From positions 729,565 to 793,564 of the forward strand of contig CBDCQM010000005.1 of assembly GCA_965220605.1 (NCBI GenBank): a DNA stretch of 64,000 bases. Reading direction: 5' to 3'. Positions 4,264-63,700 of this stretch are shown here, one piece after another (within the stretch, counting starts at the first letter, position 1; each line of letters opens with the position of its first letter). This stretch comes from Dehalococcoidia bacterium (GTDB taxonomy: Bacteria; Chloroflexota; Dehalococcoidia; Lucifugimonadales; UBA3495). The position numbers were made by a program, and so were the translations under genes. Under the pieces are notes generated by a model, which was not told where the DNA came from, did not search any database, and was given only the letters and a program-made list of their open reading frames with translations.

Positions 4264-4426
4264 CAGAGCTATCGCATATGAATTGCAACCCCGTCACTCC
4301 GGCGAAAGCCGGAGTCCAGAATGTGCGGGATGCCGGATTTTTGGATGCTAACTGCCTGGTTCGGCCACTGGATTCCGGCTTTCGCCGGAATGACGGACAT
4401 TACCCCGCTCCTATGCGATTGCCCTG
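4264..4426. mobile_element. MITE, B-ended family (CAGRGCWATCGCAT ends, twin hairpin core)
   Basis: cagagctatcgcatatg...gtcactccggcgaaagccggagtccag...ctggattccggctttcgccggaatgac...tatgcgattgccctg. Flanked by a short direct repeat, (g)ccgcgg. Confidence 0.7.
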
Positions 4427-22320: not shown

Positions 22321-22484
22321 GGGGGTGTCGTCAAATTAACTCGTCATTCCGGCGAAAGCCGGAATCCAGGGGTTTCCGCAGGCAAATCATTTTGCGGCGT
22401 AGAGCGAGCCTGGATTCCGGCTTTCGCCGGAATGACGGGAAAAGGACCGTCGCGTGTCCGGTAACCCAATTTGACGACACTCCC
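22321..22484. mobile_element. MITE, A-ended family, intact 164-bp copy flanked by TA
   Basis: TA|gggggtgtcgtcaaatta...gtcattccggcgaaagccggaatccag...ctggattccggctttcgccggaatgac...aatttgacgacactccc|TA. Confidence 0.8.
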
Positions 22485-28150: not shown

Positions 28151-28357
28151 CAGGGCAATCGCGTTATAACCGAATCGCCGCCTACTTGGCGCCAGAAATC
28201 TCTCCGGCACGCCGGAAGAGACCGTCATTCCGGCGAAAGCCGGAATCCAGAGCGTCCCGGAGCAGGCCAACTTTCCGGTAATCAAGGGTTATGGATTCCG
28301 GCTTTCGCCGGAATGACATTTGATGGGCAGGCAAAAGCTATAACGCAATCGTCCTAG
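28151..28357. mobile_element. MITE, B-ended family (longer variant) flanked by a 9-bp direct repeat gtcagatga
   Basis: cagggcaatcgcgttataacc...gtcattccggcgaaagccggaatccag...tggattccggctttcgccggaatgac...tataacgcaatcgtcctag. Direct repeats at 28142-28150 and 28357-28365. The right-hand copy contains the stop codon of the CoA-transferase gene. Confidence 0.7.
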
Positions 28358-46100: not shown

Positions 46101-47665
46101 ATGGCATTGCCCTCGCCACTTTCGACTAGAGAGTCGAGGTAGACGAACTCGTAGGAGCCTATCTGGTCCATCGTCAGGCTGGAACCGGCTGCCAGGGCGG
46201 GAGCAGGCTGGGTACATGCGGCCTCGCCGCCTGGCAGGGGGTTGTCCTGGTCGATCAACATGCCGTTGTACCAGAAGCGGAGGGGGTTGCCGAAGAACAC
46301 TGAATCGAAAGCGACCGCCGCAGCCGTGATGTTGATGTTCCCGGTGTTCTCGAGCACCACGGTGGCCCCGGCCTGCGCCGGGGGCCCGGATTCAATCGGC
46401 GCCGCTTTCGCAACCATGATGTCGCGGACGCCGCGGATGTCGCCGGTCCATCCAGCGACAACGAATCCGCCATCCTGGGACTGCACGATCGCCCTGGCCC
46501 CCGCGGAGACCGTACCGGGTCCCGCGGCCCTGGAAGCGCCAGGGTAGGCCCCGCTCCATTGCATCTGGCCGGAGGGGTCAGTCTTGACGACCCAGAACCG
46601 GTCCCCCTGGCTGAAGGACTCGGACCACCCGGCAAGGGCAAATCCCCCGTCCCCCGTCCGCACCAGCGAGTGGGCCGCATCCCTGGGTACCCCGCCGTAG
46701 GAGCGCTGCCACTGAAGCTCCCCTTGACTGTCGGTCTTCAGCAACCAGAAATCCGACAGCCCTGCGCCGCGGGACCAGGTGAAGCCACCCAGGGCGAAGC
46801 CGCCATCGTCAGTGGCGGCCAGTGAGCGGGCCTCATCGTTGTAGCTGCCGCCGTAGGTACGGCTCCAGATGGTGTTTCCGCCTGAGTCCAGCCTTATCAG
46901 CAGGGCATCGCTGCCTGTTTCGTCGGTGGACGAATTCCCCGCAATGACAAGGTTCCCGGAGGAAGTCTCAGTGACGTCGTAGGCCACTCCTCCGGATGAA
47001 TCCGACAGGTCGCGGTCCCATTGAACGGCGCCGGCAGAATCGGTCTTGAGGACCCGGATGGAGCTGCCTGTAACGGCTGTGGACCTGCCGACGAGGACAT
47101 ACCCCCCGTCGCTGGTCTGGCGCACCGCCCTCGCGGAGCCGGTCGTTGGTCCGGGCGCAGCAGGCGCGCCCTGGGAGTCTCCGTAGTTGCGCTGCCACTC
47201 CTCGAACCCCTCGGAATCGACCTTGATCAGCCAGAAGTTGCTGTCCGGGGAAGCGGCTCCACCGGGAGAGCCGGTCTCGCCGGCCAGCACGAACCCTCCG
47301 TCGGTCGTCCCGTGAACGTCGAAAAAGATGTCGTTGTTTGCTCCGCCGTAGGTGTGGGACCATAACTCGTTCCCTTGCGCATCCAGCTTGACGAGCCACC
47401 CGTCTTTCGCTCCCGCGCCGAATGTGCGTGTCTCTCCCGCGACCACGTATCCGCCGTCCGCGGCAAGGGCGACGGCGTGGGCAAAGTCGTCCCCCTCTCC
47501 TCCAAGGGTTACCCTCCATTCCGGGTCGGCCTGGGCCGAGGCCGTGCCCCCGCCAAGAACGGCGAAAACAACAGCCAGCGTCGCAGCCGCCAAGCCGGCC
47601 AGTCTGCGGACGCGACCATAATTGGGGACCCTCAACCCTGTACACACATTCAAGAAATTGCTCAA
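43172..47665 (-). CDS. 1497-aa secreted protein: 7 beta-propeller-like repeats, 2 FN3-like domains, about 8 DUF5666-like repeats
   Basis: Signal/anchor LAGLAAATLAVVFAVLGGGTASAQA. Seven repeats of ..DGG(Y/F)V(L/V)AG..D.WL(V/I/L)K.D..G...W. FN3-like segments (VTLEWADNP...GYSVY; AQLEWTASP...GYRVY). Recurrent G..V.V.A...DGSLLAR.IE units. Confidence 0.8.
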   Translation of the reverse strand: MSNFLNVCTGLRVPNYGRVRRLAGLAAATLAVVFAVLGGGTASAQADPEWRVTLGGEGDDFAHAVALAADGGYVVAGETRTFGAGAKDGWLVKLDAQGNELWSHTYGGANNDIFFDVHGTTDGGFVLAGETGSPGGAASPDSNFWLIKVDSEGFEEWQRNYGDSQGAPAAPGPTTGSARAVRQTSDGGYVLVGRSTAVTGSSIRVLKTDSAGAVQWDRDLSDSSGGVAYDVTETSSGNLVIAGNSSTDETGSDALLIRLDSGGNTIWSRTYGGSYNDEARSLAATDDGGFALGGFTWSRGAGLSDFWLLKTDSQGELQWQRSYGGVPRDAAHSLVRTGDGGFALAGWSESFSQGDRFWVVKTDPSGQMQWSGAYPGASRAAGPGTVSAGARAIVQSQDGGFVVAGWTGDIRGVRDIMVAKAAPIESGPPAQAGATVVLENTGNINITAAAVAFDSVFFGNPLRFWYNGMLIDQDNPLPGGEAACTQPAPALAAGSSLTMDQIGSYEFVYLDSLVESGEGNAIEIDGEGYQYDLDGLRANLKIVSDSPCEAGSRQLPEGPRAPLGLSGDASDTRPGSVTLEWADNPEPDIFGYSVYLSRARTGPFVRRAWLLSDSSYADPGTTDGASYYYAVAAINSWGLESPKSSVVRVGTTDFTPPAPPTGVMLIDSDRAAGTAQLEWTASPDADLSGYRVYRQDGDGPRTPVTALLSGTGFKDLTLPPEGIFSYSVTAIDLSGNESDWSNIAPAQLDFFGAVLKIRRNFIDEGTLGVMTARGLVDMAVVSGTEISVPGRAAYGLRDLAVGDHVAVSLKENIGGTVARQVYLVPASTRNRHFVGTISGLTANGIEIQPLDGNSATVSFGLSESVGIKFHEGGVELGVGDFVVASYVLTDERRGPSLTEINVIAGPEPESITDPVADPANVALVRGIFQGINPENANIILSSTEVGLDANTKMTAGMSVGDAVLVEAELLPDGSLLARKIEHDQGMGQVAFRTIMHGIFQGRDAETGLWTVSSTQLVVDRHTYTDGLPNTGQPVKVSAIVRDDGSLYAREIENLRESATPGTAHTVFIEGIFREISSQGEWNVGGVSIRVDASTVLSGRPSVGRRVAVTATGGRGDLLATEVSAIATEQERLVRAVSIRGTLDRWLEGQWMVVDGAPVLLSDLTKIVGEVSVGSTVRVRAELQGNGDLLAREVALSAAYDETRETQANPVDIEGRIELVEADGTLVVNGIPVSTTALTSIDASLQVGSPVQVRGILQRDGSVLAREIVGYGPSITGGTEASVSGVVENVETRADGTVAGFVVHGVSVAVDALTRVEMELVPGVAVVVQAVVVNGDILAVTVEQLPAGGVGVLPTVQMQGTVALPFAAPSPFPVDIVVNGITVRVSRDTEIVGAISGGTVVKVSGAISGGVFIARRIESVRSLETAAEERVHRFILRGAVEEIRHDDEGRVESILLAGNQITIVPLTIFQDEVAAGNTIIVQGIVRDGVLFAALIKLQ

Positions 47666-47755: not shown

Positions 47756-48610
47756 CTAACCACCTGGGGGCCGATAAATCACAGCAATAACCGTGCTCAA
47801 GGTCTGACCGTCGTCGTTGGTGGCCACCACGTCTATCAAGTTCGGACCCTCATCCAGAAACAGGGTCGATGAGAAGTAGCCAAACCGGTTGACCGGGACG
47901 GACCGGCCGTTGATGCTGACGATGGCATTGGGTCCGGTGCGCCCGGCAAGGGGCAGAGCGGGACTCGATACCACGCTTTCATTCTCCGGCTCAGTGATCA
48001 GGAGAAGGAAGGGCAAAGCAAGGGAAATCACCTGGCGGGAAACTCTTACTGTAGCTCCTTCACCATTGGCCGCCACCACGGAAATCGTGTTCTCACCCGG
48101 GTCCAGCGGCACCTGGGATCTGAACCCGCCCTGCCGGTCCACCTCGGTTTCGACGCCGGAAACCTCAACGCTGCTCCCCGGGTCCGTCTGGCCATACACG
48201 GCCACGGTGTTTCCGGGCACGGTGGCCCCTTCTTCCGGGGCGAATACCTGCAGAAACGGCCTGTCCGAAGGGCCTGCCGCCGGTCGGGTTGGGGCGGGAG
48301 GCGTTCCGGTGGCGGAAGATTCCAGGGTCGGAGTGGGCTCCACAGTGGATGTTGCCTGTCTTGTAGCAGTAGGCTCAGGCGTAGGCGTTGCAGCAGGGGA
48401 CGGCTCCTCCGTAGGAGCGGCAAGCGTGGGAACTTCCGCAACGGGAGTCGGGCTGGGGGAAGTATCCGGGCGCGGAAGCGGAGTAACGCAACCCAACTGG
48501 CCCACCGCCAGGATGGCGGCCGCCAACAGGGGCACCACGAGGAGCATCAATGGGCGGGACCGGCGGGATGGTGTCAGCGGAGGCCCCTCGTTCGTTATTT
48601 CCCTGTTCAC
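47756..48610 (-). CDS. Exported protein with a Pro/Thr/Glu-rich linker and two Ig-like beta-sandwich repeats
   Basis: TM/signal LMLLVVPLLAAAILAV. A P/T/E-rich tract, then two related units (VFAPEEGATVPGNTVAVYGQTDPGSSVEV...; ITEPENESVVSSPALPLAGRTGPNAIVSI...). GTG start overlaps the HK stop (GTGA). Confidence 0.6.
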   Translation of the reverse strand: MNREITNEGPPLTPSRRSRPLMLLVVPLLAAAILAVGQLGCVTPLPRPDTSPSPTPVAEVPTLAAPTEEPSPAATPTPEPTATRQATSTVEPTPTLESSATGTPPAPTRPAAGPSDRPFLQVFAPEEGATVPGNTVAVYGQTDPGSSVEVSGVETEVDRQGGFRSQVPLDPGENTISVVAANGEGATVRVSRQVISLALPFLLLITEPENESVVSSPALPLAGRTGPNAIVSINGRSVPVNRFGYFSSTLFLDEGPNLIDVVATNDDGQTLSTVIAVIYRPPGG

Positions 48611-49620
48611 CGGCCAGTCAGGGGCAGGGACAACAGGAAAGAAGTGTGGTGCCCATCCTGTGGTTCCGGCGCCGACTCAACCGTAACGTCCCCGCCGCAA
48701 CGGCGGGCCAGGGTTCGGGCTATGAATAGTCCAAGACCTGAGCTGGTCTTTTCCTCCCTCTGTCCCACTTCGGGGGTCCAACCCCGGTCGAAGACGTACT
48801 CAAGGTATTGCGCCGCGATGCCCGGCCCGTCATCCCACACTCCTATGTGGAACCTGGCGTCGTCGCGGGTGAGAGTGACGTCGACGCGGGATTCGGCATG
48901 AGCCACCGCGTTGTCGACGAGGTTGGTGACGATGTGCTCAATGGCATGGGGGTCGGAGGAAGCCATCCCGAACTCGGCCGGTTCCGCCCACCAGGTAATT
49001 TCCTTGTTCAGTTCAGCAGCCACCGGGGTGTACCGGTCGGCAATACGCCGCACGATCTGGGAGGGTTCCACGGGAGAGGACGAGGGAGGGTCTCCCGGAG
49101 CCTCCAACTGGACCAGCACTTCGATGTTGGAGAGCATGAGCCGGAAGTTGGGCGTCTGGCGGGCGATCTCGTCCATCAACTCCTGGACGGTTGGGTTGAA
49201 CTGCTCACCCGCAGCCTCCAGGGCCGCCTGCACCTCTCGCTGCTTTCCTGCGATACGGCGGAGTGGCCGGCCCAGATCGTGGTCGAAGAGCCTGAAAAAC
49301 TGTTCAGTGGTCTCTCTCCAGTGGTTGTTCTGCTCTTCCCGCGTCCATTCACCCTCGTCCGGGGCGTTGCCGTTCAGCACGGCCGCGCCCATGCCGAGTC
49401 CGGTTGCCCCCAAACCCGTCATGAGCAACAGGGCCCCGATGTAGGTCAAAGGCTCCACGCCCCAGAGGTTGTCGAAAATCTCCGGGCTGGCAAAGGGGGC
49501 CACAATGATGCAAACGAGCCCCGCAAACGCCACGGTCAAGCTGGCGGCGCAGAGCGCAAGGAGAAGGCGCGAATGCTTCCACAGGGGCGATGCCGGGCGC
49601 TTCACGATCCCCAACGCCAT
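48607..49620 (-). CDS. Sensor histidine kinase
   Basis: Two N-terminal TM helices, an H-box (FDHDLGRPL), an N-box (IVTNLVDNAVAHA) and G-boxes (DDGPGI; GLGLFIA). Confidence 0.8.
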   Translation of the reverse strand: MALGIVKRPASPLWKHSRLLLALCAASLTVAFAGLVCIIVAPFASPEIFDNLWGVEPLTYIGALLLMTGLGATGLGMGAAVLNGNAPDEGEWTREEQNNHWRETTEQFFRLFDHDLGRPLRRIAGKQREVQAALEAAGEQFNPTVQELMDEIARQTPNFRLMLSNIEVLVQLEAPGDPPSSSPVEPSQIVRRIADRYTPVAAELNKEITWWAEPAEFGMASSDPHAIEHIVTNLVDNAVAHAESRVDVTLTRDDARFHIGVWDDGPGIAAQYLEYVFDRGWTPEVGQREEKTSSGLGLFIARTLARRCGGDVTVESAPEPQDGHHTSFLLSLPLTGR

Positions 49621-49644
49621 GCCAGTTCCCTCTCGTTGCCGGCC

Positions 49645-50436
49645 TCAGCCCCTGGGCGGAGACAAGCGGTAACCCCGGTCACGCACATTGAGGATCAATT
49701 CGTCCGGACCGAATCGCGTCCCAAGCGCCCGTCCCAGTGAGTCCTTTATCTCCCGTATTCTAACTCTTAGGGAAGCCCTTGGGTCTTCACCCTCGGAATA
49801 CCGCTCGAGGCGTGAGAAAGGCACCAATTCGCCGGGGCTGCGGTACCAGGCGGTGGCCAACTCTCTGAAAATCTCGAACTTCATGCCCTGGATGTCGTTA
49901 ACAGGCCGACTGCCGACATCTTCCGCTACCAGGACCAGTTCGGAAACGGTGTCCAGGACTATTCCGCCGCCCACCGTAATCCGGTCCGGGGAAACCCCCA
50001 TGAGTCGGCGCAATCGAAGAACAACCTCATCCGTACCGGCCAGCTTGTCAATGAAGTCGACCGGTGCGTCCCACTTCAGAGCGTTGCGGGCTGCGAGTTC
50101 ACGTTCCGGCCCCTGGGTGTACTGGGTAAACATGAGGACCGGGAGACGAGGCCATCGGTTCACGATCTGCACCAGGATGTCCAGGCCCTTGAATCGGTCG
50201 TCGGCATGGTCTCCGAACCTGACGTCCAGAAGTACCGCATCGGGGCCGAGTTCCTCGATGTCCCACAAGGCGGTCGCCTCGAACTCGTCGCTCAGGGAGC
50301 CGCCGCCGAGATCGGGCTGCACCACCATGGTACGCCAGCCCTCCTCCTCCATGCGCTGGCGAATGACGCGCATGATGGACGATTCGGCTTCGTCGTCCAC
50401 GATCAGTATTTTGTGAGCAGGCCGTCTCGCTGCCAT
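49645..50436 (-). CDS. Response regulator with a C-terminal winged-helix (OmpR/PhoB-type) DNA-binding domain
   Basis: KILIVDDE..., ...VLLDVRF... (receiver Asp) and C-terminal ...LRVRIREIKDSL...ILNVRDRGYRL. The receiver domain has atypical insertions. Confidence 0.75.
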   Translation of the reverse strand: MAARRPAHKILIVDDEAESSIMRVIRQRMEEEGWRTMVVQPDLGGGSLSDEFEATALWDIEELGPDAVLLDVRFGDHADDRFKGLDILVQIVNRWPRLPVLMFTQYTQGPERELAARNALKWDAPVDFIDKLAGTDEVVLRLRRLMGVSPDRITVGGGIVLDTVSELVLVAEDVGSRPVNDIQGMKFEIFRELATAWYRSPGELVPFSRLERYSEGEDPRASLRVRIREIKDSLGRALGTRFGPDELILNVRDRGYRLSPPRG

Positions 50437-50646
50437 ATTCCCCGTCCGGGTTGACCACTCCAAGTGTTTGCATTTTATCAAAGTCAGCCCGCCGCAAGCT
50501 CCATGAGAGGGTGACGTGTTTATGGCAGGTTGACAAGGGACTCTTCACCTATACAATTGGCCCCGCAGCCTCACACTCCCTGGGGTGTATTGTGCCTTGT
50601 CGGGCAATTGGGCACGATTTCCAGACCGTTCAGATGGAGGTAGGAC

Positions 50647-53420: not shown

Positions 53421-53873
53421 CGTCCTCGTCGTCTCCTCAATCGCCGACGGAAAGCTGCAAGAGCCGTACCGCTCAAGTCGTAAGCCGTTATGACGAATGC
53501 GTCGCCTGTTCCCGGGCCTGGCACGTAGATAACCCGAAGATACCTGTCGGCAGCGGTTTGTCCTATGACTATTCGTGAGTCATTTCGTCCGGGTCTATCT
53601 TCGGCAGCTTCTTCTAGGGAGTGTCGTCAAATTGAGCAACCAGACACACCACAGCCTTATTTCCGTCATTCCGACGAAAGCCGGAATCCAGAAAATCCGG
53701 CTGCCGCATGACGGTTTGGCTACGGAAACCTCTGGATTCCGGCTTTCGCCGGAATGACGGGTTAATTTGACGACACCCCCTAAGGCTTCAATCGCTTCTG
53801 ATTCTTCGACCCCGTGACGGAAAATATGCGGCAGTCCCGTCTCGGGGTCGATGTAAAAGCGTATACCCGACAT
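53417..53873 (-). pseudogene. Toxin-like gene (BrnT/DUF497- or DUF4258-like) split by a MITE
   Basis: The 5' part 53873-53781 encodes MSGIRFYIDPETGLPHIFRHGVEESEAIEAL. The 3' part 53614-53417 encodes EEAAEDRPGRNDSRIVIGQTAADRYLRVIYVPGPGTGDAFVITAYDLSGTALAAFRRRLRRRRGR*. Deleting 53617-53780 plus one TA joins them in frame (96 aa). Confidence 0.6.
53617..53780. mobile_element. MITE, A-ended family, intact 164-bp copy flanked by TA, inside the toxin-like gene
   Basis: TA|gggagtgtcgtcaaattgag...gtcattccgacgaaagccggaatccag...ctggattccggctttcgccggaatgac...aatttgacgacaccccc|TA. Confidence 0.85.
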
Positions 53874-54570: not shown

Positions 54571-55362
54571 ATGGTCAGGTTAGGCGGCACGGCAACAATC
54601 GCCCACCTCGAGGTGTTCCAGGGTCTGGAGAAGCTGTTCCGTCGGCGTGGCATCGAAATGGACTGGGTGCTGTACTCCGACTACGACGTCATGGTGGACG
54701 CATTCGTCGCGGGCGACATCGACCTGGCCTGGAACGGACCTCTGGGCTACGTCAAGATCAAGCGGCTCCTCGATGAGCCGTGCCAGGTCATCGCCATGCG
54801 CGACGTGGACATCGGTTTCACCACCCATTTCATAGCCCGGACCGGCTCCGGGATTGAAACGGTGGAGGACCTGAAGGGACGCCGGTTCGCCTTCGGCCGG
54901 CGAGCGTCGGAACAGGCGGGGCTGGTCCCTTACTACCTGTTGAAGCAGGTCGGCATCAACCCAGGCAGCGATCTCGCCGTAGCCAGCTTTTTCGAGCAGC
55001 GGCAGTCGGCGACCCGTTCGGACGAGCGCGACGTGGTCGAACGCGTGGCCTCCGGCGAGTTTGATGCCGGGTCGGTCAGCCAGCGGACAATGGAAACGAT
55101 GGCCGAAGACGGCAGCCTGCCGCGGGACAACGTGCGCATTTTCTATTCCAGTCCCCCGTACAGCCACTGCTGTTTCACGGCGCAGCGAAACCTGGAGCCG
55201 TCCCTCGCCCGTGAAATCGAAGAGGCTTTCCTCTCGGTGACCGGCAACGACGAAGTTGAGGAGGCGGTGCTGAAGGGCGAGGCCTGCAGCAGCTTCGTGC
55301 CGGGCATAGACACAGGGTGGGAACTGATCGAAGCTGCGGCAGTGAGCGAGGGGCTGGTCTAG
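54571..55362 (+). CDS. PhnD/SsuA-like type 2 periplasmic-binding-fold protein without a recognisable signal peptide
   Basis: ...DIDLAWNGPLGYV..., ...VEDLKGRRFAFG...SEQAGLVPYYLL... resemble phosphonate-binding PhnD. No hydrophobic N-terminus and no adjacent ABC genes. Confidence 0.6.
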   Translation: MVRLGGTATIAHLEVFQGLEKLFRRRGIEMDWVLYSDYDVMVDAFVAGDIDLAWNGPLGYVKIKRLLDEPCQVIAMRDVDIGFTTHFIARTGSGIETVEDLKGRRFAFGRRASEQAGLVPYYLLKQVGINPGSDLAVASFFEQRQSATRSDERDVVERVASGEFDAGSVSQRTMETMAEDGSLPRDNVRIFYSSPPYSHCCFTAQRNLEPSLAREIEEAFLSVTGNDEVEEAVLKGEACSSFVPGIDTGWELIEAAAVSEGLV

Positions 55363-56309
55363 GTCTCGCTGTCGCCGCTGGAGGCATTGCGCAGGATGTC
55401 TTCCAGCATGTTGTCCAGCGCGGGGTCGAGTTCCACGGCCGGTTCGAAAGGCGTGTAGTTGAAATCGGTGCGCGCGCGGTCGATCAGTTCCTTCGCCGTC
55501 GGGTTGGTGCTGCCGATCTTCTCCAACGTGTCCCGCAATTCCTGGGATTCGGCTTCGCCCAGCGACCGAAGTTCCGACAAGTCGAAGTCCAGGCTGAAGA
55601 TCGAATTGATTCGCCGCATGATGTCGTAGAACGAGCGGTGATCCCGGCTAATGCCCACGGGATCATTGTTGGAGGTCAGGAACGGATACATAGGCGCCAT
55701 GGCCCCAAGGCGGAACATCTCCACTTCCGGGTGCTGGAAGTGCGCGACGGTGATGAGGGCCATGCCTATCGTCGGCCCATTCCTGCTATTGGAACCGTAG
55801 TTTGAAAACCGCACGCCCAGCTTGTCCATCTCGGGCTTCATGCTGGCCTGGCTGTAGATGCAGCTGACGCTCCGCTCCATATCGGGCGGCGCGGCCCCGT
55901 TGTAGCCTTCGACGGCAACGGTCTGGGAGACTCCCAGCTGCTTGACAGCCTGGAAGAACGCGTCGGCGTACACATCCAGCCGGAACCACGGCTCCTCGCC
56001 GAGAAAGATGACCAGACCGTTTCCGGCGTCGAAGAAATTGTTTTCGCGCCGCATGTTGGTGTCGGGCAGCCCTTCCCGGTAGGCCACCCGCGGCCGGTAG
56101 GTATCATGGGTGCCCGGGACCTGGAACGGATAACAGAGTTTGGCGATTTCGGGCCCCATTGATCCAATACGACGGGCCTGGAGCTTCTCGATCAGGTAAC
56201 GAGGCAGGCCGCTGGAGATCTCGCCTCCGTCGGACCACTGGCGACGCCAGCCGGCAATCAGATAACGGGCGTCGGGGATGGACTGCAAGTCCAGCAGTTC
56301 GTCAGCCAT
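55359..56309 (-). CDS. PAC2 (proteasome assembly chaperone 2-like) family protein
   Basis: 316 aa from ATG 56309 (AAGGAG upstream). MADELLDLQSIPDARYLIAGWRRQWSDGGEISSG... The family call is from memory. The track ORF extends into the MITE. Confidence 0.6.
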   Translation of the reverse strand: MADELLDLQSIPDARYLIAGWRRQWSDGGEISSGLPRYLIEKLQARRIGSMGPEIAKLCYPFQVPGTHDTYRPRVAYREGLPDTNMRRENNFFDAGNGLVIFLGEEPWFRLDVYADAFFQAVKQLGVSQTVAVEGYNGAAPPDMERSVSCIYSQASMKPEMDKLGVRFSNYGSNSRNGPTIGMALITVAHFQHPEVEMFRLGAMAPMYPFLTSNNDPVGISRDHRSFYDIMRRINSIFSLDFDLSELRSLGEAESQELRDTLEKIGSTNPTAKELIDRARTDFNYTPFEPAVELDPALDNMLEDILRNASSGDSET

Positions 56310-56407
56310 CTGCCAACACTCCTTTAGCCAAACGGGCATCACCTGGAAAGAATCAGTAACTGTAATTCTGCCAGACGACCCGCTACAGCGCAAATCCGGT
56401 GAGAGCG

Positions 56408-56987
56408 CAGGGCTATCGTATATGGCCCATTTAAGCGCCGTCATTCCGGCGAAAGCCGGAATCCAGAAAACGCTAGGGAGTGTCGTCAAACTTGCACGTC
56501 ATTCCGGCAAAAGCCGGAATCCAGAAAACGCTAGGGAGTGTCGTCAAACTTGCACGTCATTCCGGCGAAAGCCGGAATCCAGAAAACGCTAGGGAGTGTC
56601 GTCAAACTTGCACGTCATTCCGGCGAAAGCCGGAATCCAGAAAACGCTAGGGAGTGTCGTCAAACTTGCACGTCATTCCGGCGAAAGCCGGAATCCAGAA
56701 AACGCTAGGGAGTGTCGTCAAACTTACACGTCATTCCGGCGAAAGCCGGAATCCAGAAAACGCTAGGGAGTGTCGTCAAACTTACACGTCATTCCGGCAA
56801 AAGCCGGAATCCAGAAAACGCTAGGGAGTGTCGTCAAACTTGCACGTCATTCCGGCGAAAGCCGGAATCCAGGGATTTCCGTAGCCAAACCGTCATGCGG
56901 CAGCCGGATTTTCTGGATTCCGGCTTTCGCCGGAATGACGGAAATAAGGCTGTGGCGCGTCTGGTTACTCAATTTGACGACACTCCC
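56408..56987. repeat. Composite MITE: B-type left end, 8 tandem 58-bp hairpin units, A-type right end
   Basis: Hairpin starts at 56440, 56498, 56556, 56614, 56672, 56730, 56788 and 56846 (period exactly 58 bp). The unit is gtcattccggcgaaagccggaatccagaaaacgctagggagtgtcgtcaaacttgcac, with only 2 variable positions. Ends with ...aatttgacgacactccc|TA. Confidence 0.85.
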
Positions 56988-57021
56988 TAGGCACAGAGAA
57001 CGCAGCCGGAGGGCAACATCT

Positions 57022-57048
57022 CTGGATTCCGGCTTTCGCCGGAATGAC
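57022..57048. repeat. Solo copy of the hairpin core
   Basis: ctggattccggctttcgccggaatgac. Confidence 0.6.
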
Positions 57049-57111
57049 CATATTGTTAACCAATCAATTCGCCTATCAGTAAAAGACCCTGTCCCTCAGC
57101 CCGGCATAATT

Positions 57112-57146
57112 CCCCAAATTAAAGGGGCGCCCGTTTGGGCGCCCCT
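57112..57146 (-). terminator. Rho-independent terminator of the collagen-like gene
   Basis: Minus strand reads AGGGGCGCCC-aaac-GGGCGCCCCT followed by TTTAATTT. Confidence 0.6.
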
Positions 57147-57171
57147 ATGGGTGTGCCAAGGGTGCGTGGGG

Positions 57172-57993
57172 TTAGCTGGACTGGCGGCCTGCTATGAATG
57201 CGCCGCCTGCGGCTACCACGCCGACGATGGCGATGATCAGGGCCACGATGGCGAGGGCTCCGCCCCCACCGTCCGCGCCCGCAGCGCCGGCGGGACCGGC
57301 AGGACCGGTAGCGCCGTCAGCGCCAGCGGGACCGGCAGGACCAGCGGGGCCGGCAGGACCGGCTGCGCCGTCGGAACCATCGGAGCCGTCGGAACCGTCA
57401 GCGCCAGCGGGACCGGCAGGACCGCGAGCGCCGTCAGCGCCGGGTGCGCCGTCATGACCGTCGTGGCCATCCTCGCCAGCGGGGCCGGCAGGACCGGGCT
57501 CGCCCTGAGGACCGGGCTCTCCCTGAAGTCCGCGGGGACCGCGCATGGCCTGCTGGTCCTGCTGCGGCGTCCGGGTCGGCGGCACCATGCCCGTGGAAGC
57601 GTCCAGGTTGACCATGGCGTCCATGCCGCCAACGGTCATGACTTCGGCGGGGTCGGACATGGCGTCGTACTTCATGGTCTCGCCGTCCATCATCATGGAC
57701 AGCGCGAAGGTGACCATCTTTTCGCCGGAGTCGGGGACGATGAGGGTGAAGGAGCCGTCGGCCATGACGTCGGCCATGCCGATCTCCATCATCATCATCT
57801 CGCCCTCTTCACCCTCCTCTTCGACCATGGCCACGACCATGGTGCCGTCGGGCGGGGTCTCGCCATCCAGCATGGCCATGCCTTGGATCAGGCTGGGGAT
57901 GCCTGGTGGCTGCTGCGCGAGGGCCACCGACAGCGGCAGGGCCGCGAGCAGGGCGATCACGCTGAGCAGGGCCAGGACTCTGGTTTTGGTCAT
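57172..57993 (-). CDS. Met-rich, collagen-like (G-X-Y)n protein with a signal peptide and a C-terminal TM anchor
   Basis: Signal [26 protein letters not shown]. Head domain with about 21 Met in about 120 aa ([22 protein letters not shown]). About 30 uninterrupted G-X-Y triplets ([25 protein letters not shown]...). Tail [28 protein letters not shown]. Confidence 0.8.
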
Positions 57994-58114
57994 TCCGTCC
58001 TCCTCATTTCATTCGCATTGGCGGGCGGAGAGTCCGCCCGCCCGGTCGGGATGGGGAAGCCGTCCCGGTTTGCGCCGGGGCGGCTTCCCGCCAGTTTCCA
58101 GGATTGTCCAGGCC

Positions 58115-60580
58115 CTACTGGACGGTGATCAGGCTCCAGCCTGCCAGGAGGTTCTGGCCTTGTACCTCGGCAGCTCCCTTCAGCTGGATCCAGATGATGT
58201 TTCCGCTCTCCAACGCCTCCAGGCTGTTGGCGGCCTCGAATCCGGGATCCGGATCGTAGAGGTACCACGACTGGTCGGTGTTGTCATAGAGGAAGATGCG
58301 GTCGAGCATATCAGCCTCGATCAGACCCGCGAACAGGTCCGCCGGGGCGCGGCTCACCGTCGCCGTAGCGATCTCCAGGAAGGTGGTGATGGTGGTCTGG
58401 CTCACCCGGACCGTAACGGTCTGGTTGCCGAGCTCGAGCTGGGGAACCAGGACGCTGGACGTAAAGTCGCCGTCTATCGAGGACGCGGGAGCCGGTACGG
58501 GCCGGACATCCACGCCGCCGATTTCCATCACTGCCACGGTGGCGAAGGCCGGGAAGTTCATGCCGCTGATGGTGATCATCTCACCGGACGACACGCTGTC
58601 CGTGCTCAGGCTCACCATGGCGCCCGGAGTCTCGTGGGTATCCTTGGCGGTTACGCTCGCGTAGACCCCAACCGAGGTGGCCTCTACATCGTGCGTTGAG
58701 CCGATCCTTGCGTAGCTGGGGACGACGAAGTCAATGCTGACCGCGCCGGAGGCGTCCGCGGAGCCGGCAGCAACGGTTACGAAGTTGTTGCCGTCTTCGT
58801 ACTTCACCTGCACCAGGTCGCCGGACGGGAAGCCGCTCCCGCTCACGTTAACGGTGGTGCCGCGGCGGCTGGTCTCCGGATCGACCGTGATGGTGGCCTT
58901 GGGGATCTCAATCGACCCTTCCGCCACGCGGCCGGACCCGGTAGCTGTGACCGAGATCGTCTTCTTGCCGGAGCCGATGCCGTCATCCTCATCGCTGGGA
59001 ACGTTAACGGCGATCACGACGTCGCCGGCGGAGTTGGCCGTGGCATTGACGTTTGCAGTCTGGTTTCCGATCTTGACGCTGCTGATGTTGTCGCCGGCAA
59101 CGAAGCCGCTGCCTTCGATGGTGATCTGCTGGCCGGGCACGACCATCGCCGGCTGGATGGTCAGCGAAAGAACGCCGACTGTCAGCGAGGCGGTGGCCGA
59201 CGGAGCGCTCATGTCGCCATCGCCGTCGGGGTCGGTGCCGGTTACCTTGACGGTCTGAGTCCCGCGGTTGGCGTCGGAGGGAATCATGACCTTGAACTCG
59301 GCAGCGCCGTCAGCGTTGGTGGAGACGGCTCCCGCGCTGGAGGTCACATCACTGGCCCCGACCGTAACCTTGGTGACCGAGTTGGATGCGGGCCAGTCGG
59401 AAAGGTTGATGGTCACTTCCTTGGACACGGGGGACTCTTCGGGAGACACCGTTGCCTTCGGGCTGACGGTGAACGACCCGGAGACGTCCTGGTCGTTGCC
59501 CGCTGCGTCCTGGGCAGTGATGGTGTTCGCCTGGTTGGCCTTGAAGGCCGACGAAGTGGTGTCGATCTCAAGGGTCCCGGTGTTGTCGGCGATTGTTACC
59601 TCGCCGTGCTTGGCGTCGTTCAGGTTGACCGTCGCCGATCCGTTGGCGAAGCCCTTGAAGGTGGCGGTGATCATCGTGCCGCGGGTGCCGCTGGTCTCGC
59701 TGAGGCTGATCACCCGATCGATGCTGGTATTCGCTTCCTTCTCGTCGCCGTCCGGGAAGTTCTCCTGCCATTCGACGGTCTTGGTGCCGCCGGAGGCCGC
59801 GTTCGTGACCCCGGCCGCCTGCTTGATCCTGATGGTGTAGGCGCCACTAACCGGGTTATTCTGCGGGTCTCCGTTAGCCCTTACATTCGGCACGGTCATG
59901 GTGACGTTGCTGCCGCTCACCACGACGTTGCTGGGGTTGCCTTTGTAGCTGCCGCTGGTAATGTCGATAGCGGAATCAGCGATGGTATCCGGCACACCGA
60001 AGGCCGACAGGTCCACCCTGATGTCCTCGTTGGGTTCGATGGCCGTTGCCGCGTTGGAGCTAATGGTTATCTGCACCGCAGCCCCGGGGGTCTGCGAGCT
60101 GAGCGCGATGGTCCCATCAACTCCGCCATTGCCGCCGGTGCTGGTCTCAGACACGGTTACCGTGTCGTCGCCCTCGATGGGTTGGGCGTCGCCCCCGGAC
60201 GCGAATGTGCCGCTGAAGGCTTCGGACTCGCCCGGTGTCATGGGAGCCGTAAGCGTGTAGCTAACGCTCGCCGACTGTCCAGCTGCAAGAATGAGGTATG
60301 ACACCCCGGTATTCCCCCGTTCCGTGAAATCCCCGGCAGAGGCCAAGGTGTAGCCCGAGGGATAGGTATCCTCAACTACCCCGCCTGCCGCGAAATTGGC
60401 CAGTTCGATGGTGACCGTTATTTCGCCCCCGGGCGCCACCGGGTTCGGGGTAATGCTCCTCATGGCGCTGTGATCATCCGCTTGTGCCACGGTGTAGACA
60501 CCCATCGCAAAGAGGGTGGCCAGCAACGTGGCTAGCAAGGCCAGGGCTATGCCTGTTTGCTTGCCGAGCTGTGCTTTCAT
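58115..60580 (-). CDS. 821-aa secreted surface protein with repeated Ig-like/IPT-TIG-like modules
   Basis: Signal/anchor IALALLATLLATLFAMGVYTVAQA. Recurrent units such as ITIEGSGFVAGDNISSVKIGNQTANV, VNVSGSGFPSGDLVQVKY and ITISGMNFPAFATVAVMEIGGVDV. ATG 60580 follows AAGGAGA. Confidence 0.7.
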   Translation of the reverse strand: MKAQLGKQTGIALALLATLLATLFAMGVYTVAQADDHSAMRSITPNPVAPGGEITVTIELANFAAGGVVEDTYPSGYTLASAGDFTERGNTGVSYLILAAGQSASVSYTLTAPMTPGESEAFSGTFASGGDAQPIEGDDTVTVSETSTGGNGGVDGTIALSSQTPGAAVQITISSNAATAIEPNEDIRVDLSAFGVPDTIADSAIDITSGSYKGNPSNVVVSGSNVTMTVPNVRANGDPQNNPVSGAYTIRIKQAAGVTNAASGGTKTVEWQENFPDGDEKEANTSIDRVISLSETSGTRGTMITATFKGFANGSATVNLNDAKHGEVTIADNTGTLEIDTTSSAFKANQANTITAQDAAGNDQDVSGSFTVSPKATVSPEESPVSKEVTINLSDWPASNSVTKVTVGASDVTSSAGAVSTNADGAAEFKVMIPSDANRGTQTVKVTGTDPDGDGDMSAPSATASLTVGVLSLTIQPAMVVPGQQITIEGSGFVAGDNISSVKIGNQTANVNATANSAGDVVIAVNVPSDEDDGIGSGKKTISVTATGSGRVAEGSIEIPKATITVDPETSRRGTTVNVSGSGFPSGDLVQVKYEDGNNFVTVAAGSADASGAVSIDFVVPSYARIGSTHDVEATSVGVYASVTAKDTHETPGAMVSLSTDSVSSGEMITISGMNFPAFATVAVMEIGGVDVRPVPAPASSIDGDFTSSVLVPQLELGNQTVTVRVSQTTITTFLEIATATVSRAPADLFAGLIEADMLDRIFLYDNTDQSWYLYDPDPGFEAANSLEALESGNIIWIQLKGAAEVQGQNLLAGWSLITVQ

Positions 60581-60729
60581 ATTCGTTAATTCTCCTTGAT
60601 GAACCTCGTTGAGGGTGCTGGACATTGAACTCTTCGCCCTTCGGCGGAAAACTCATTCACATAAGCCTCGTCCTCTTTCTGTCCCGATGGGATGAAGCCA
60701 TAAGGCAAATCACAACTCTCGTTTGCTGT

Positions 60730-60757
60730 GGGGCGCCGGAAAAGGTCCCGGCGCCCC
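60730..60757. terminator. GC-rich hairpin after the FN3 giant gene (terminator candidate)
   Basis: ggggcgccgg-aaaaggtc-ccggcgcccc. No clear U-tract. Confidence 0.4.
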
Positions 60758-60770
60758 GCGTTGGGCTGTG

Positions 60771-63700
60771 TTATCCGTTGATGTAAGCAGCAATGACTTC
60801 GCTCAACTCAACCGAGCCGAGGTCGCCATTGATATAGTGGCTGATGGCGATGGACAACTCGGTTCCGCTGATCTGCCCGTCATCGTCCTCGTCGTACCTG
60901 CTCACTGCGCCTTCGTCCACGTCGGTGACGCTGATGGTCACGTCGATGGATGCGCTGCTGTTGGGTGCGCCGGAGCCGTCATTGACGGTTACCGTCACCA
61001 TGTAGGACATCGTGGTCTCGTAGTCCAGCATGGTGCCTTCGCCTACCATTATCTGGCCCGTGCTGGTGTCGATGGTGAAGTACATGGCGTCGTCGCCGCC
61101 CAGGGAGTAGGTCAGCGTGTCGTCGGCGTCGGCGTCGGTGGCCATCACTGGGGCACCGACATTCATACCGGCAGCCGTGTTCTCCGCCACTTCCCTGGCG
61201 CCCATGCCGTCCGCGAACGTCGGCTGGTTATTGGCGGCCACCATGCTGGTGGTTGGGTCGCTGGTGGCTTCCCTGGCGGGACGGTGCTCGTCGTTGTAGG
61301 TCACCATGGCCCGCAGGTAGTAGCCCACATCCGCCGTCTCCGGGGTGTACATGTCGGTCGCGGCGCCCATTCCTGCGGCGTCCATCCAATCGGTCATGTC
61401 CATGGACTTCTGCCACTTCCAGACTTCGCTGGAGGTCATGCCGTCAGGGTCCTCCAAGGTGGCGGTTACCGCGGCGCCAACCAAAGGAGTCTGCGTTGAC
61501 AGGGTCACTGTCCCCATCTGGTCTGCTGGACCACCCAGCCTGACGACATCAGAATACGGGCCGGTGCCGTCACCATTAGTGGCTGCAACCCGATAGTACC
61601 GCGTAGTCCCCGCAGTAACAGCATCAGATGCTGTTGTGGCGGCGGCCACGGCCGGGGTACTAACAACAGTCCAAGGATGCTCGCCGTCTGCTGACCATTG
61701 AGCAACGTAGCCAGTGATAGCGCTCCCGCCCTGCGACGGAGCGTCCCAAAAGAGAACAACGCTCGTGAAGTTTTGCGGCACAATCGTCAGTCCCGTCGGC
61801 GCATCCGGCTGCGTACCAGCCTTCGGAAGGGCCTCGTCTCCTGCTGTTTGAATGAGGTAGGGCCCCATACCAACGCTGTTGATAGCCGCCACCCGGTAGC
61901 GCACTGACTTGCCTGCCAGAGAACTGTGGGTGTCGGAATAATACGCTTTCTTGTTCCCTGTGTTGTCGCTCGCAACTACCCACGTCGCGCCGGCGTCGGT
62001 CGAGCGATCAATCTTGTAGCCCAGAATCGTGCCGGCTGGCGCCACCCAGAAGAATTCAACCGTCTGCGTTCCCACAGCCACAACTGCCGACCCATCCGAA
62101 AATGCCGTCGTCCCATCATCCGTCGGTACGGCAGGCACCCCTACCGGTCGAGCGGTCACGCTGACGACAGCAGAGTACGGGCCGTTGCCTTGAGTATTAG
62201 TGGCCGCAACCCGATAGTACCGCGTAGCCCCCGCAGGAATAGTTGCTGTTGCTGTTGTGCTGTTACCAGGAGTTCCCAGAGTGATGTCGCTAGTAGCCCA
62301 AGGGTGCTCGCCGTCTGCTGACCATTGAACAATGTAGGCAGAGATCAAGCTCTGACCCTGCGACGGAGCGCTCCAAGAGAGATTGACATCGGTATTTGTC
62401 GGCGTGGTGGTATTCGGTGCCGGCGACACGGTCACCGTCAGTCCCGTCGGCGCGCCCGGTTCCGTACCAGCCTTCGGAAGGGCCACGTCTGTTGCTGTTT
62501 GAACGAGGTAGGGACCCACACCAATGCTGTTGATAGCCGCCACCCGGTAGCGCACTGACTTACCGGCCAGGGAACTGTGGGTGTCGGAGTAATACACGTT
62601 CTTGTTCCCGGTGTTGGCGTTCGCAACTACCCACGTCGTGCCGGCGTCGGTCGAGCGATCAATCTTGTAGCCCACAATCGTGCCGGCTGGCGCCATCCAA
62701 TTGAGTTCGACCGTCTGCGTTCCCACCGCTACAACAGCCCCATCCGTCAATCCAGTCGGCGCTTCAGGCACCCCTGCCGTCACACCGCGACTAACTGCAG
62801 AATACGGGCCGGTGCCGTCAGCATTAGTGGCTGCGACCCGGTAGTACCGCGTAGCCCCCGCAGGAATGTCATCTGTTACTGTAGTGCCCGAAACCGTACC
62901 AGAAACAGCAGCCCAAGGATGCTCGCCGTCTGCTGACCATTGAGCAACGTAGCCAGTCGCGCTCGCGCCCCCAGACGGAGCGTTCCAAGAGAGTGTAACG
63001 GTCCCGGCATTTGTCCCTGTCACCGTCAGTCCCGTCGGCGCACCCGGCTGTGTACCAGCCTTCGGAAGGGCCACGTCTGCCAATATTTGAACGAGGTAGG
63101 GACCCATACCAACGCTGTTGATAGCCGCCACCCGGTAGCGCACTGACTTACCGGCCAGGGAACTGTGGGTGTCGGAGTAGTATGCGTTATCGTTCCCGGT
63201 GTCGGCGTTCGCAACTACCCACGTCGCGCCGGCGTCGGTCGAGCGATCAATCTTGTAGCCCAGAATCGTGCCGGCTGGCGCCGTCCAATTTAGTTCAACC
63301 GTCTGCGTTCCCACCGCCACAACACCCGTCGCATCCGTCAATCCCGTCGGCTTTTCAGGCACCCCTACCGGTCGAGCGGTCGCGCTGACGCTAGCAGAAT
63401 ACGGGCCGTCGCCTTGAGTATTAGTGGCCGCAACCCGATAGTACCGCGTAGTTCCCGCAGAAACTCCAGTATCTGTTACTGTGGTACCGGTACCCGAGGT
63501 AGTAATAACCGCCCAAGGATGCTCCCCGTCTGCTGACCATTGAGCAATGTAGGCAGTGATAGCGCTCTCACCCTGCGACAACGGAGCGTCCCAAGAGAGA
63601 ACAACGGACCCAACAGTTGTCGGCGACACGGCCGCTTTGAGCGCCCTCGGCACACCCGGTTCCCTACTAACCTTCGGAAGGGTCTCGTCTCCTGATGTTT

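Follow-up and report, generated by a model that had tools for sequence, protein, structure and literature searches.

In the SlaB subunit of the surface layer (S-layer) of the archaeon Sulfolobus, β-sandwich domains follow a signal peptide, a stalk of trimeric coiled-coil type comes next and a transmembrane (TM) helix forms the C-terminus; the subunit holds the SlaA canopy in a framework approximately 30 nm thick (PMC10903991). MrpX of Azospira suillum is an exported protein in which methionine (Met) makes up 20% of the residues and charged residues 44%; hypochlorite oxidises it, and a periplasmic methionine sulfoxide reductase (Msr) is thought to recycle it (PMC4436054). Here we describe a gene whose product resembles the first of these in design and the second in composition. 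It lies at positions 57172..57993 on the minus strand of a 64,000-nucleotide stretch of a Dehalococcoidia bacterium genome (contig CBDCQM010000005.1, positions 729,565 to 793,564; the whole stretch is referred to here as the window) and encodes a 273-amino-acid (aa) type-I membrane protein with a Met-rich head on a collagen-like stalk. The protein combines known kinds of element, those of bacterial collagen-like surface proteins and those of Met-rich extracytoplasmic modules, and is not a categorically new system. What a preliminary description of the window had missed is its context, namely that the protein belongs to a large SAR202/Dehalococcoidia family and that its gene is constantly accompanied by an upstream gene for an immunoglobulin (Ig)/TIG-domain protein.

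SAR202 bacteria occur throughout the ocean and are also major symbionts of sponges. No peptidoglycan synthesis is encoded in their genomes, and in culture the cells prove to be monoderm, with an S-layer-like coat outside the membrane (PMC10444878, PMC6306507, PMC11994032). This layer was described as 'reminiscent of the S-layer' of other Dehalococcoidia (PMC10444878), and sponge SAR202 genomes also lack peptidoglycan genes (PMC6306507). A conserved pair formed by a collagen-stalked anchor and a large Ig-domain protein offers concrete candidates for components of this envelope, and these can be tested in cultured SAR202.

A collagen-stalked membrane protein and its family

We found that the open reading frame (ORF) begins with ATG, ends with TAA (included in the coordinates) and occupies exactly the position and strand given in the preliminary description. 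A signal peptide covers residues 1-26 (57916..57993, minus strand, as for all features of the gene), with recognisable n-, h- and c-regions, a mean Kyte-Doolittle (KD) hydropathy of 2.58 across the h-region and a cleavage site between ALA and QQ. The head follows at residues 27-151 (57541..57915) and stands out by its composition, since its 125 aa contain 21 Met (16.8%) and 22 Asp and Glu (17.6%), only 3.2% Lys and Arg, and no His, Cys or Trp. The collagen-like stalk at residues 152-241 (57271..57540) consists of 30 uninterrupted G-X-Y triplets by regular-expression count, or 32 if GGG and GAL are included, and the protein matches the Pfam Collagen family PF01391 with 53 bits against a gathering cut-off of 27.2 (E = 2.9e-14). 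A Gly4 hinge at residues 242-245 (57259..57270) precedes the C-terminal TM helix; the hinge reads DGGGG in most loci and DGGGA, DGGS or SGGGG in a few. The 24-aa TM helix (residues 246-269; 57187..57258) has a mean KD of 2.60, hardly varies within the Met-rich clade and leads into a short cytoplasmic tail, RQSS (57175..57186), which is RRA, RRG or RQSG in relatives. The signal peptide, a head of about 120 aa with about 21 Met, the roughly 30 triplets, the hydrophobic helix with its RQSS end and an anchoring unlike that of Scl or BclA had all been claimed before, and each was found, including both of the Met-rich strings quoted at the time; there is no LPXTG. Although the layout of glycines, TM helix and basic residues recalls a sorting signal, the C-terminal 50 aa matched none of the NCBIfam sorting-signal models (GlyGly-CTERM, PEP-CTERM, PGF-CTERM, LPXTG) at E ≤ 10.

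Pro is frequent at the X position of the stalk (12 of the 32 triplets that end with GAL), and Ala and Asp are frequent at the Y position. Among homologues the tract varies in frame between 18 and 37 triplets, with a family median of 24. The Pro-rich X position and the in-frame variation in length are consistent with a triple helix. A collagen triple helix rises by 0.286 nm per residue, and we infer on this basis that the 30 triplets of the window would form a rod of approximately 26 nm and the median member of the family one of approximately 20 nm.

An AlphaFold2 model of the head, computed as a monomer with 19 family sequences in the alignment, is a seven-strand β-sandwich (mean predicted local distance difference test score, pLDDT, 80.7; predicted template modelling score, pTM, 0.71). 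Foldseek found nothing in the PDB at E ≤ 1e-3 with this model, and the best matches were generic prealbumin-like, CBM20-like, pilin-like or dioxygenase-type sandwiches. A profile of the head gave only chance-level matches to unrelated chains among PDB sequences. Scans of the head against Pfam and NCBIfam likewise assigned no family, the best hit being DUF1866 (E = 0.15; Pfam, E ≤ 10).

We asked how widely this architecture is distributed. Searches with the Met-rich head returned 8 proteins from a word-indexed search and 11 from an exhaustive HMMER search of 1.8 billion representatives; the proteins found with this head alone were all metagenomic, and in several of them frameshifts interrupt the collagen tract. 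Scanning one genome per species with an alignment of Met-rich N-termini yielded 11 loci, all of them in metagenome-assembled genomes (MAGs) labelled Dehalococcoidia, Chloroflexota/Chloroflexi or SAR202. All 11 share one layout (signal peptide, head of 90-135 aa, 18-37 G-X-Y triplets, Gly-rich hinge, TM helix, short basic tail), and full-length homologues of identical layout occur in 12 other loci. With Met-poor members added to the profile, 685 proteins were found at E ≤ 1e-3. The composition of the Met-rich head masks the family, which became visible only once Met-poor members had joined the profile. A survey of Met-rich collagen-like proteins in related genomes, as the preliminary description had suggested, recovers mostly Met-poor heads, with the Met-rich ones confined to one clade. 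Among the best 119 of the 685 members, 112 have a collagen run, 88 start with MTKTRF and 85 end with MGRRA, and the N-terminus MTKTR[FV]LAL is conserved family-wide. Met-poor members include proteins from MAGs named for pelagic sources (Caspian Sea, SAR202 cluster).

In the databases, family members are named 'hypothetical protein' or, wrongly, 'FimV' or 'collagen alpha', and an exact-product look-up gave no record for the 273-aa protein of the window itself. Our literature search found no paper combining 'collagen-like' with 'Dehalococcoidia', and the papers that it returned for SAR202 and collagen were irrelevant. This large family of the SAR202/Dehalococcoidia lineage (Chloroflexota) therefore appears to be undescribed, and a collagen design anchored by a C-terminal TM helix is unusual for bacteria. 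Such a compact TM-anchored bacterial collagen might also be of use to protein engineers. The closest homologue, in locus L001 (10001-10800), is frameshifted inside the collagen tract, and several ENA gene calls (P0002-P0008) are truncated or frameshifted there as well; these frameshifts are either long-read assembly errors in a GC-rich repeat or real decay. Locus L001 also carries IS605 OrfB/TnpB (Cas12f-like) genes and a HigB-like toxin a few kilobases downstream.

Two long plus-strand ORFs overlap the gene (56770..58128 and 57545..58699), and one could suppose that the G-X-Y tract and the Met run are no more than the antisense reading of another ORF. The preliminary description had doubted this, and the doubt was well placed. 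When the head is compared with its near orthologues in L001, L004 and L005, the ratio of nonsynonymous to synonymous change (dN/dS) is 0.25-0.34, which indicates purifying selection on the head; it rises to 0.45-0.96 between more distant or paralogous heads. The minus-strand reading yields a protein with signal peptide, foldable domain and TM anchor, an architecture common to the 685 homologues. The gene is preceded by a strong ribosome-binding site, GAGGAGG. A terminator-like hairpin (57123..57146, minus strand) follows 26 bp past the stop, with a 10-bp stem containing 9 GC pairs and then TTAATTT. Homologue architecture, dN/dS and the size of the family rule out an antisense artefact, to which we leave practically no probability, and the ORF is a real gene. 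One of the two opposing frames, 57545..58699 (plus strand, 384 aa), has 16 Met in the part overlapping the collagen gene. Since 14 of the 22 ATG codons of the collagen gene are preceded by C and thus lie in the palindrome CATG, which reads ATG on both strands, this Met-rich antisense ORF is a mirror artefact, and it illustrates how a Met-rich gene casts a Met-rich shadow ORF.

Origin and possible uses of the methionines

The preliminary description had called the Met content of the head remarkable for a GC-rich genome, and our data support this. Met makes up 2.0% of residues on average in 19 other window ORFs, most of them with a Pfam match, and the binomial probability of finding at least 21 Met in 125 aa against this background is 1e-13; the GC content of the window is 0.59-0.65. 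The enrichment is absent from most of the family, with a median head Met content of 0% and a maximum of 4.3% in the best 119 of the 685 members. By comparison, heads of the Met-rich clade (the window, L001, L002, L004, L005, L006, L007, L009, L012, P0012, P0014 and P0016) contain 10.4-17.2% Met, and the head in L008 is intermediate with 4.7%. Homologues lacking Met enrichment had been named beforehand as grounds for dismissing the feature. Such homologues are indeed the rule, but the enrichment is not thereby meaningless, as it arose in one clade and has been maintained there at 10-17%. Our sequence comparison indicates that the Met-rich head is a derived trait of one clade, and a switch from 0% to 17% Met on one scaffold is, as far as we found, unreported.

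Other properties of the head changed along with its Met content. Asp and Glu account for 14-18% of residues in Met-rich clade heads and 4-12% in Met-poor heads, while both Trp and His fall from mostly 1-2 per head to 0-1. Two clade-specific acidic, Met-bearing loops lie largely opposite gaps in Met-poor relatives. The first (residues 58-73; 57775..57822) holds Met 68, 69 and 73 and the second (residues 100-118; 57640..57696) holds Met 100, 101, 102 and 112, none of which has a counterpart there. Overall, 8 of the 21 window Met fall in regions opposite gaps, the two loops included, 10 occupy positions of Thr, Ser, Asn, Ala, Gly or Glu in Met-poor relatives, and 3 occupy hydrophobic positions. 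In the AlphaFold2 model, 15 of the 21 are in predicted β-strands. Since the Met stand mainly at positions that are polar in relatives, their side chains are most likely exposed.

The Met content was kept while the positions of the residues turned over. Clade members are only 32-51% identical to the window head and still contain 10-17% Met, and just 5 of 60 Met-bearing alignment columns have Met in seven or more out of 10 clade members. Between the heads of the window and L007, which have 21 and 23 Met, 5 Met were kept, 15 lost and 11 gained; in other words, 11 of 62 changed non-Met sites became Met (approximately 18%), compared with the 2% background. This pattern argues for selection on composition and against both a single binding site and drift.

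The alternative, that the excess has no function and stems from biased mutation or relaxed constraint in a surface domain of low complexity that evolves fast, draws on dN/dS values of up to 0.96 and on the ease with which Thr (ACG) and Val (GTG) codons would become Met (ATG) by single transitions in a GC-rich genome. It does not explain why Met content is held at such low head identity, why so many changed sites became Met, or why the gain of Met was accompanied by a gain of acidic residues, a loss of Trp and His and new loops. Moreover, the adjacent TIG protein and the FN3 domains of a neighbouring giant protein experience an identical mutation regime and are not enriched, and near orthologues are under purifying selection. 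We reject neutral drift on the grounds of Met retention during turnover, unenriched neighbours and purifying selection, and consider it very improbable.

The head of this clade was remodelled from approximately 0% to 10-17% Met, with acidic residues doubled and Trp and His largely lost, and we propose that selection acts on a thioether-rich acidic surface instead of one fixed site. The likeliest use of such a surface would be the one shown for periplasmic MrpX, here a sacrificial sink of high capacity that intercepts hypohalous acids and other oxidants outside the cell. An oxidant sink working at the level of composition fits because Met positions turn over, because Met is spread across domains and because irreversibly oxidised residues were removed. 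Also relevant to the role of the Met are the absence of Cys, the enrichment of unrelated modules in the neighbouring giant and the derivation of at least one clade member from a sponge. Among the uses considered here we rank the sink first, as a tentative reading whose probability we put well short of even.

The giant protein is encoded further upstream on the minus strand (ORF 60771 to beyond 63998) and runs off the window end. It contains approximately eight near-identical FN3 repeats, after which come a 'PDG…W.W' module and a cadherin domain, both Met-rich, and finally a dockerin/EF-hand-like tail (DEDDDGQISGTELSIAISHYINGDL). The Met-rich C-terminal modules, namely the 'PDG…W.W' module and the cadherin domain (residues 821-1030; 60909..61538), hold 17 Met in 210 aa (8.1%), compared with 4 Met across residues 1-820 (0.49%), which bears out an earlier hint of a Met theme common to this protein and the collagen-like one. 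The cadherin domain aligns to animal cadherins, in which its Met positions are mostly other residues. An FN3/cadherin giant stands further upstream of the cassette in the window and in three Met-rich loci; Met-rich modules homologous to those of the window giant lie upstream in L001 and L007, and L009 also has homologous modules.

A near-equal alternative to the oxidant sink is that the Met-rich acidic head may be a soft-metal module for Cu(I) or Ag(I) that buffers or sequesters copper at the cell surface or passes it on, through Met-only sites like those of the Ctr1 Mets motifs, CusF/CusB, CopC or the CueO Met-rich insert. Both uses had been raised in the preliminary description and are plausible. 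Dense MxM, MxxM and MMMM clusters occur in the head, which has no Cys, and ligation by Met alone is typical of Cu(I) sites in oxidising compartments outside the cytoplasm. Its doubled acidic residues could attract cations. The stalk of three Met-rich members (window, L007 and L012) also contains a GHDGHDG motif (residues 176-182; 57448..57468 in the window), and a trimer would carry six His and six Asp at one level, as a ring below the head and a possible metal site; His occurs anywhere in the collagen tract of only 2 of 112 Met-poor family members. Turnover of Met positions is compatible with this reading as well, in that the Met-rich copper regions of Ctr1 and CueO are also poorly conserved in position. 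On the other side, the head has no His, whereas CopC, PcoC, CusF, SilE and CopM use His together with Met, and few of its Met columns are well conserved. The top 50 Foldseek PDB matches of the head include no copper protein, and no copper Pfam family matched it at E ≤ 10. The GMTCxxC heavy-metal-binding motif was not found in the locus flanks, nor any copper-handling Pfam family among 20 scanned window ORFs. Met enrichment of cadherin and other giant modules would not be expected of a dedicated metal site. We regard a copper role as possible but rather unlikely.

The protein might instead be a free-standing fibril or adhesin like Scl or BclA, in which the collagen rod pushes a sticky head with many flexible Met side chains outward to bind sponge matrix or cells alongside the FN3/cadherin giant. 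A head on a stalk is the known use of bacterial collagen, and partial NCBIfam matches to Scl and Lcl are in keeping with it. Met-lined surfaces give adaptable hydrophobic binding, as in the M domain of SRP54 and in calmodulin. The giant of the locus has Met-rich tip modules of adhesion type, and cadherin and FN3 genes are enriched in sponge MAGs (PMC8163846). Furthermore, the fast evolution of the more distant heads and the presence of two cassettes in one sponge MAG are typical of host-facing surfaces. That MAG, SB0662_bin_29, contains two complete TIG and collagen cassettes (L006 and L012) whose heads have a dN/dS of approximately 0.96, which suggests diversification or alternative surface variants; names of the form SB066x denote sponge bins (PMC7883664). 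Weighing on the other side, the family and its strict TIG pairing also occur in Met-poor pelagic MAGs, so that host adhesion would not be the core function, and a complex better explains the strict two-gene synteny. We consider a stand-alone adhesin unlikely.

The Met-rich clade amounts to a natural experiment in which one scaffold is found with 0% and with 17% Met. Comparison of homologues would make the role of surface Met testable, whether as antioxidant shield, copper buffer or adaptable binding surface, and if the link to host association is true, this would count as a novel type of surface adaptation in symbionts.

The Ig/TIG partner and a possible protein envelope

We found a homologue of the same partner gene 79-141 bp upstream of the collagen gene, on the same strand, in all 14 loci (the window and 13 others), in Met-rich and Met-poor clades alike. 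In the window, the partner is an 836-aa secreted Ig/TIG-domain protein (58115..60625, minus strand; Pfam TIG) with a conserved N-terminal hydrophobic signal; it lacks an anchor at its C-terminus, and translation probably begins at Met16, nucleotide 60580 (MKAQLGKQTG...). In every locus, conservation of the partner is highest in a C-terminal domain of approximately 75 aa (58118..58357, minus strand), which reads …LDRIFLYDNTDQSWYLYDPDPGF…GNIIWIQL…GWSLITVQ in the window and has the consensus …W.Y.N..Q.W..YDP…GDIVWV…GWNLISL. AlphaFold2 predicts a small, mostly β domain (pLDDT 80.5), for which Foldseek found nothing in the PDB below E = 0.68, and no PDB chain matched the partner sequence at E ≤ 1. 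In the metagenomic proteins P0017 and P0018, a partner-type C-terminal domain is fused to a head-like domain. A shift in composition of the partner C-terminal domain alongside the Met-rich head was looked for and none was found.

The two genes are separated in the window by a 121-bp spacer (57994..58114, minus strand) that is highly conserved relative to L001 and contains two GC-rich hairpins ahead of the GAGGAGG site. The stems of these hairpins are kept while their loops vary in the window, L001, L002, L004 and L005, and no U-tract follows them. They could process, stabilise or attenuate the mRNA and so set the ratio of the two products. An Rfam scan of 56300-58200 gave sub-threshold chance matches only, and no sigma-70-like promoter was found in 56850-60900. 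Since no promoter-like site was found, co-transcription is likely. Within the pair, a terminator-like hairpin was found after the collagen gene only.

We propose that the collagen-like triplets would trimerise into the rod described above, that this trimer would act as a membrane-anchored stalk holding or spacing the Ig-rich partner, and that stalk and partner might together build the protein envelope of peptidoglycan-less SAR202. Given that these cells are monoderm, lack peptidoglycan and carry an S-layer-like coat, building that envelope is the likeliest role for the pair. The size of the family and the constancy of the Ig/TIG pairing likewise argue for an envelope-stalk role over a stand-alone adhesin. 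Gene adjacency and topology are observed; trimer, contact and lattice are what we infer from these observations, and we give the view of the pair as stalk and outer element a little less than an even chance.

Joining the two proposals, a collagen stalk of the envelope whose Met surface in one clade would serve as an oxidant sink is our best combined explanation, though we hold it with some reserve as somewhat less probable than not. Several observations weigh against it. Met enrichment is confined to some modules, the TIG partner having 1.8% Met and a second giant protein of the window, which has DUF5666 domains, 0.9%. A motif scan of all window and locus ORFs found no MsrA, MsrB, HMA or sortase signature, and Pfam scans of 24 window ORFs found no copper or Msr/MsrP-type family; neither Msr, MsrP-like nor copper-handling genes were thus seen across the 40-64 kb part of the window and the locus flanks. 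The evidence does not separate oxidant scavenging, Cu(I) binding and a sticky binding surface. The head and the partner C-terminal domain are both acidic, so that simple electrostatic docking as in SlaA/SlaB is unlikely. Finally, an LPVTG-type sortase signal in a third gene of some loci fits poorly with an envelope without peptidoglycan.

This third gene lies downstream of the pair in 6 of the 13 related loci (L002 11929-12657, L004 12852-13580, L005 11100-11831, L008 10931-11536, L010 10977-11588 and L011 3382-4065). In its product, a signal peptide precedes a head-like domain, and a Pro/Thr-rich linker leads from there to a sortase-type end made up of LPVTGD, a TM helix and a basic, Arg-rich tail. 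The window has no third gene, and a tandem repeat array occupies its place directly downstream of the collagen gene (56439-56872; a 58-bp unit in 7.5 copies with 98% identity). The unit contains the hairpin ATTCCGGCGAAAGCCGGAAT, of which the window has 20 copies (0 expected by chance), at sites including 4296-4391, 18059, 22346-22433, 28227-28314, 37746, 53668-53755, 56917 and 57026. Its copies often form inverted pairs approximately 68 bp apart, which looks like a repeat of the repetitive extragenic palindrome (REP) or miniature inverted-repeat transposable element (MITE) type. When translated, the repeat reads VIPAKAGIQ or FWIPAFAGMT, and it lengthens several spurious ORFs as well as the PAC2 ORF at 55359-56489, the latter at its N-terminus.

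Elsewhere in the window, the DUF5666 giant (43172-47665, minus strand) is a 1497-aa secreted protein with N-terminal repeated 'DGGY/F…G' units (β-propeller-like), FN3-like segments and seven DUF5666 domains. Downstream of it on the same strand are genes for a glucodextranase-B/cadherin-like protein, a histidine kinase and a response regulator (47756-50481). Pfam also identifies three family-III CoA-transferases and a luciferase-like monooxygenase in the window, which we take to be paralogue expansions typical of SAR202 and which agree with an origin of the window in that group.

A more far-reaching idea would unite the stalk, its partner and the Met surface. SAR202/Dehalococcoidia might have a two-component envelope of collagen stalk and Ig/TIG canopy, convergent with SlaA/SlaB. 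In one clade, with at least one sponge-derived member, the stalk would have become a 'methionine armour' with approximately 60 exposed thioethers per trimer, a regenerable sink for host hypohalous acids or Cu(I) under the canopy, and the adaptation would also have spread to the tip modules of neighbouring adhesins. We consider this scheme speculative and in its entirety improbable.

Comparison with known systems

Like the present protein, the collagen-like surface proteins Scl1/Scl2, Lcl and BclA combine a signal peptide with a globular region outside the collagen and a G-X-Y tract that lacks hydroxyproline; they too are located at the cell surface, and a trimeric rod would be common to all of them. 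Membership in these families was rejected. The window protein scores 59.7 bits against the Scl2 model NF038329 (cut-off 325), 46.4 bits against the Scl1 model NF038330 (cut-off 400) and 35.4 bits against the Lcl model NF046116 (cut-off 500), and in each case the collagen part alone aligns. The mode of anchoring differs, with a C-terminal TM helix here as opposed to LPXTG and sortase in Scl; BclA attaches to the exosporium through its N-terminus. The head of the present protein is a distinct, unclassified β-sandwich, and strict Ig/TIG pairing and a host in the phylum Chloroflexota further set it apart from all three. A design of this kind is also seen in animal membrane collagens and class A scavenger receptors. 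MARCO, SR-A and collagens XIII and XVII are single-pass membrane proteins with a trimeric collagen rod and a globular ligand-binding head. These eukaryotic proteins are type II, with an N-terminal anchor, and have hydroxylated collagen and SRCR or other heads; the resemblance is one of design only.

With regard to composition, MrpX and the Met-rich head are both exported, contain approximately 17-20% Met and many charged residues, lack catalytic motifs and conserve composition rather than positions. They differ in that MrpX is a small, soluble protein whose gene accompanies yedYZ (msrPQ-type) genes under the control of SigF, whereas the present head is a folded β-sandwich on a membrane-anchored collagen stalk, bears no sequence relation to MrpX and has no Msr or sigma-factor genes nearby in the window or the locus flanks. 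The binders of Cu(I) through Met motifs (Ctr1 ectodomain, CopC/PcoC, CusF, the CueO insert and CopM) have in common with the head MxM/MxxM clusters and an oxidising extracytoplasmic compartment, and CopC also has a β-sandwich scaffold. Unlike these, the head has neither His nor a conserved three- or four-Met site, and it shows no copper-operon context and no Pfam or fold match.

The closest parallel in design is the S-layer of Sulfolobus. In both cases the small subunit has a signal peptide, an N-terminal β-sandwich, a long rod that is trimeric in SlaB and would be so here, and a C-terminal TM helix. The collagen gene adjoins a gene for a large β-rich secreted protein, a candidate outer subunit, in 14 of 14 loci. 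The SAR202 host, moreover, lacks peptidoglycan. The predicted rods of approximately 20-27 nm are of the order of the S-layer framework of approximately 30 nm. The subunits differ in that the rod here would be a collagen triple helix and that of SlaB is an α-helical coiled coil, and in that one head domain is present here compared with three in SlaB. Homology to SlaA and SlaB was rejected, as neither partner nor head has a meaningful PDB sequence match and the SlaB chain 8qox_B appears only as a generic sandwich in the Foldseek results for the head (E = 0.014, TM 0.40, rank 25, among other generic β-sandwiches). The relation to SlaB is analogy of design, not homology: a β-sandwich on a long rod with a C-terminal TM helix.

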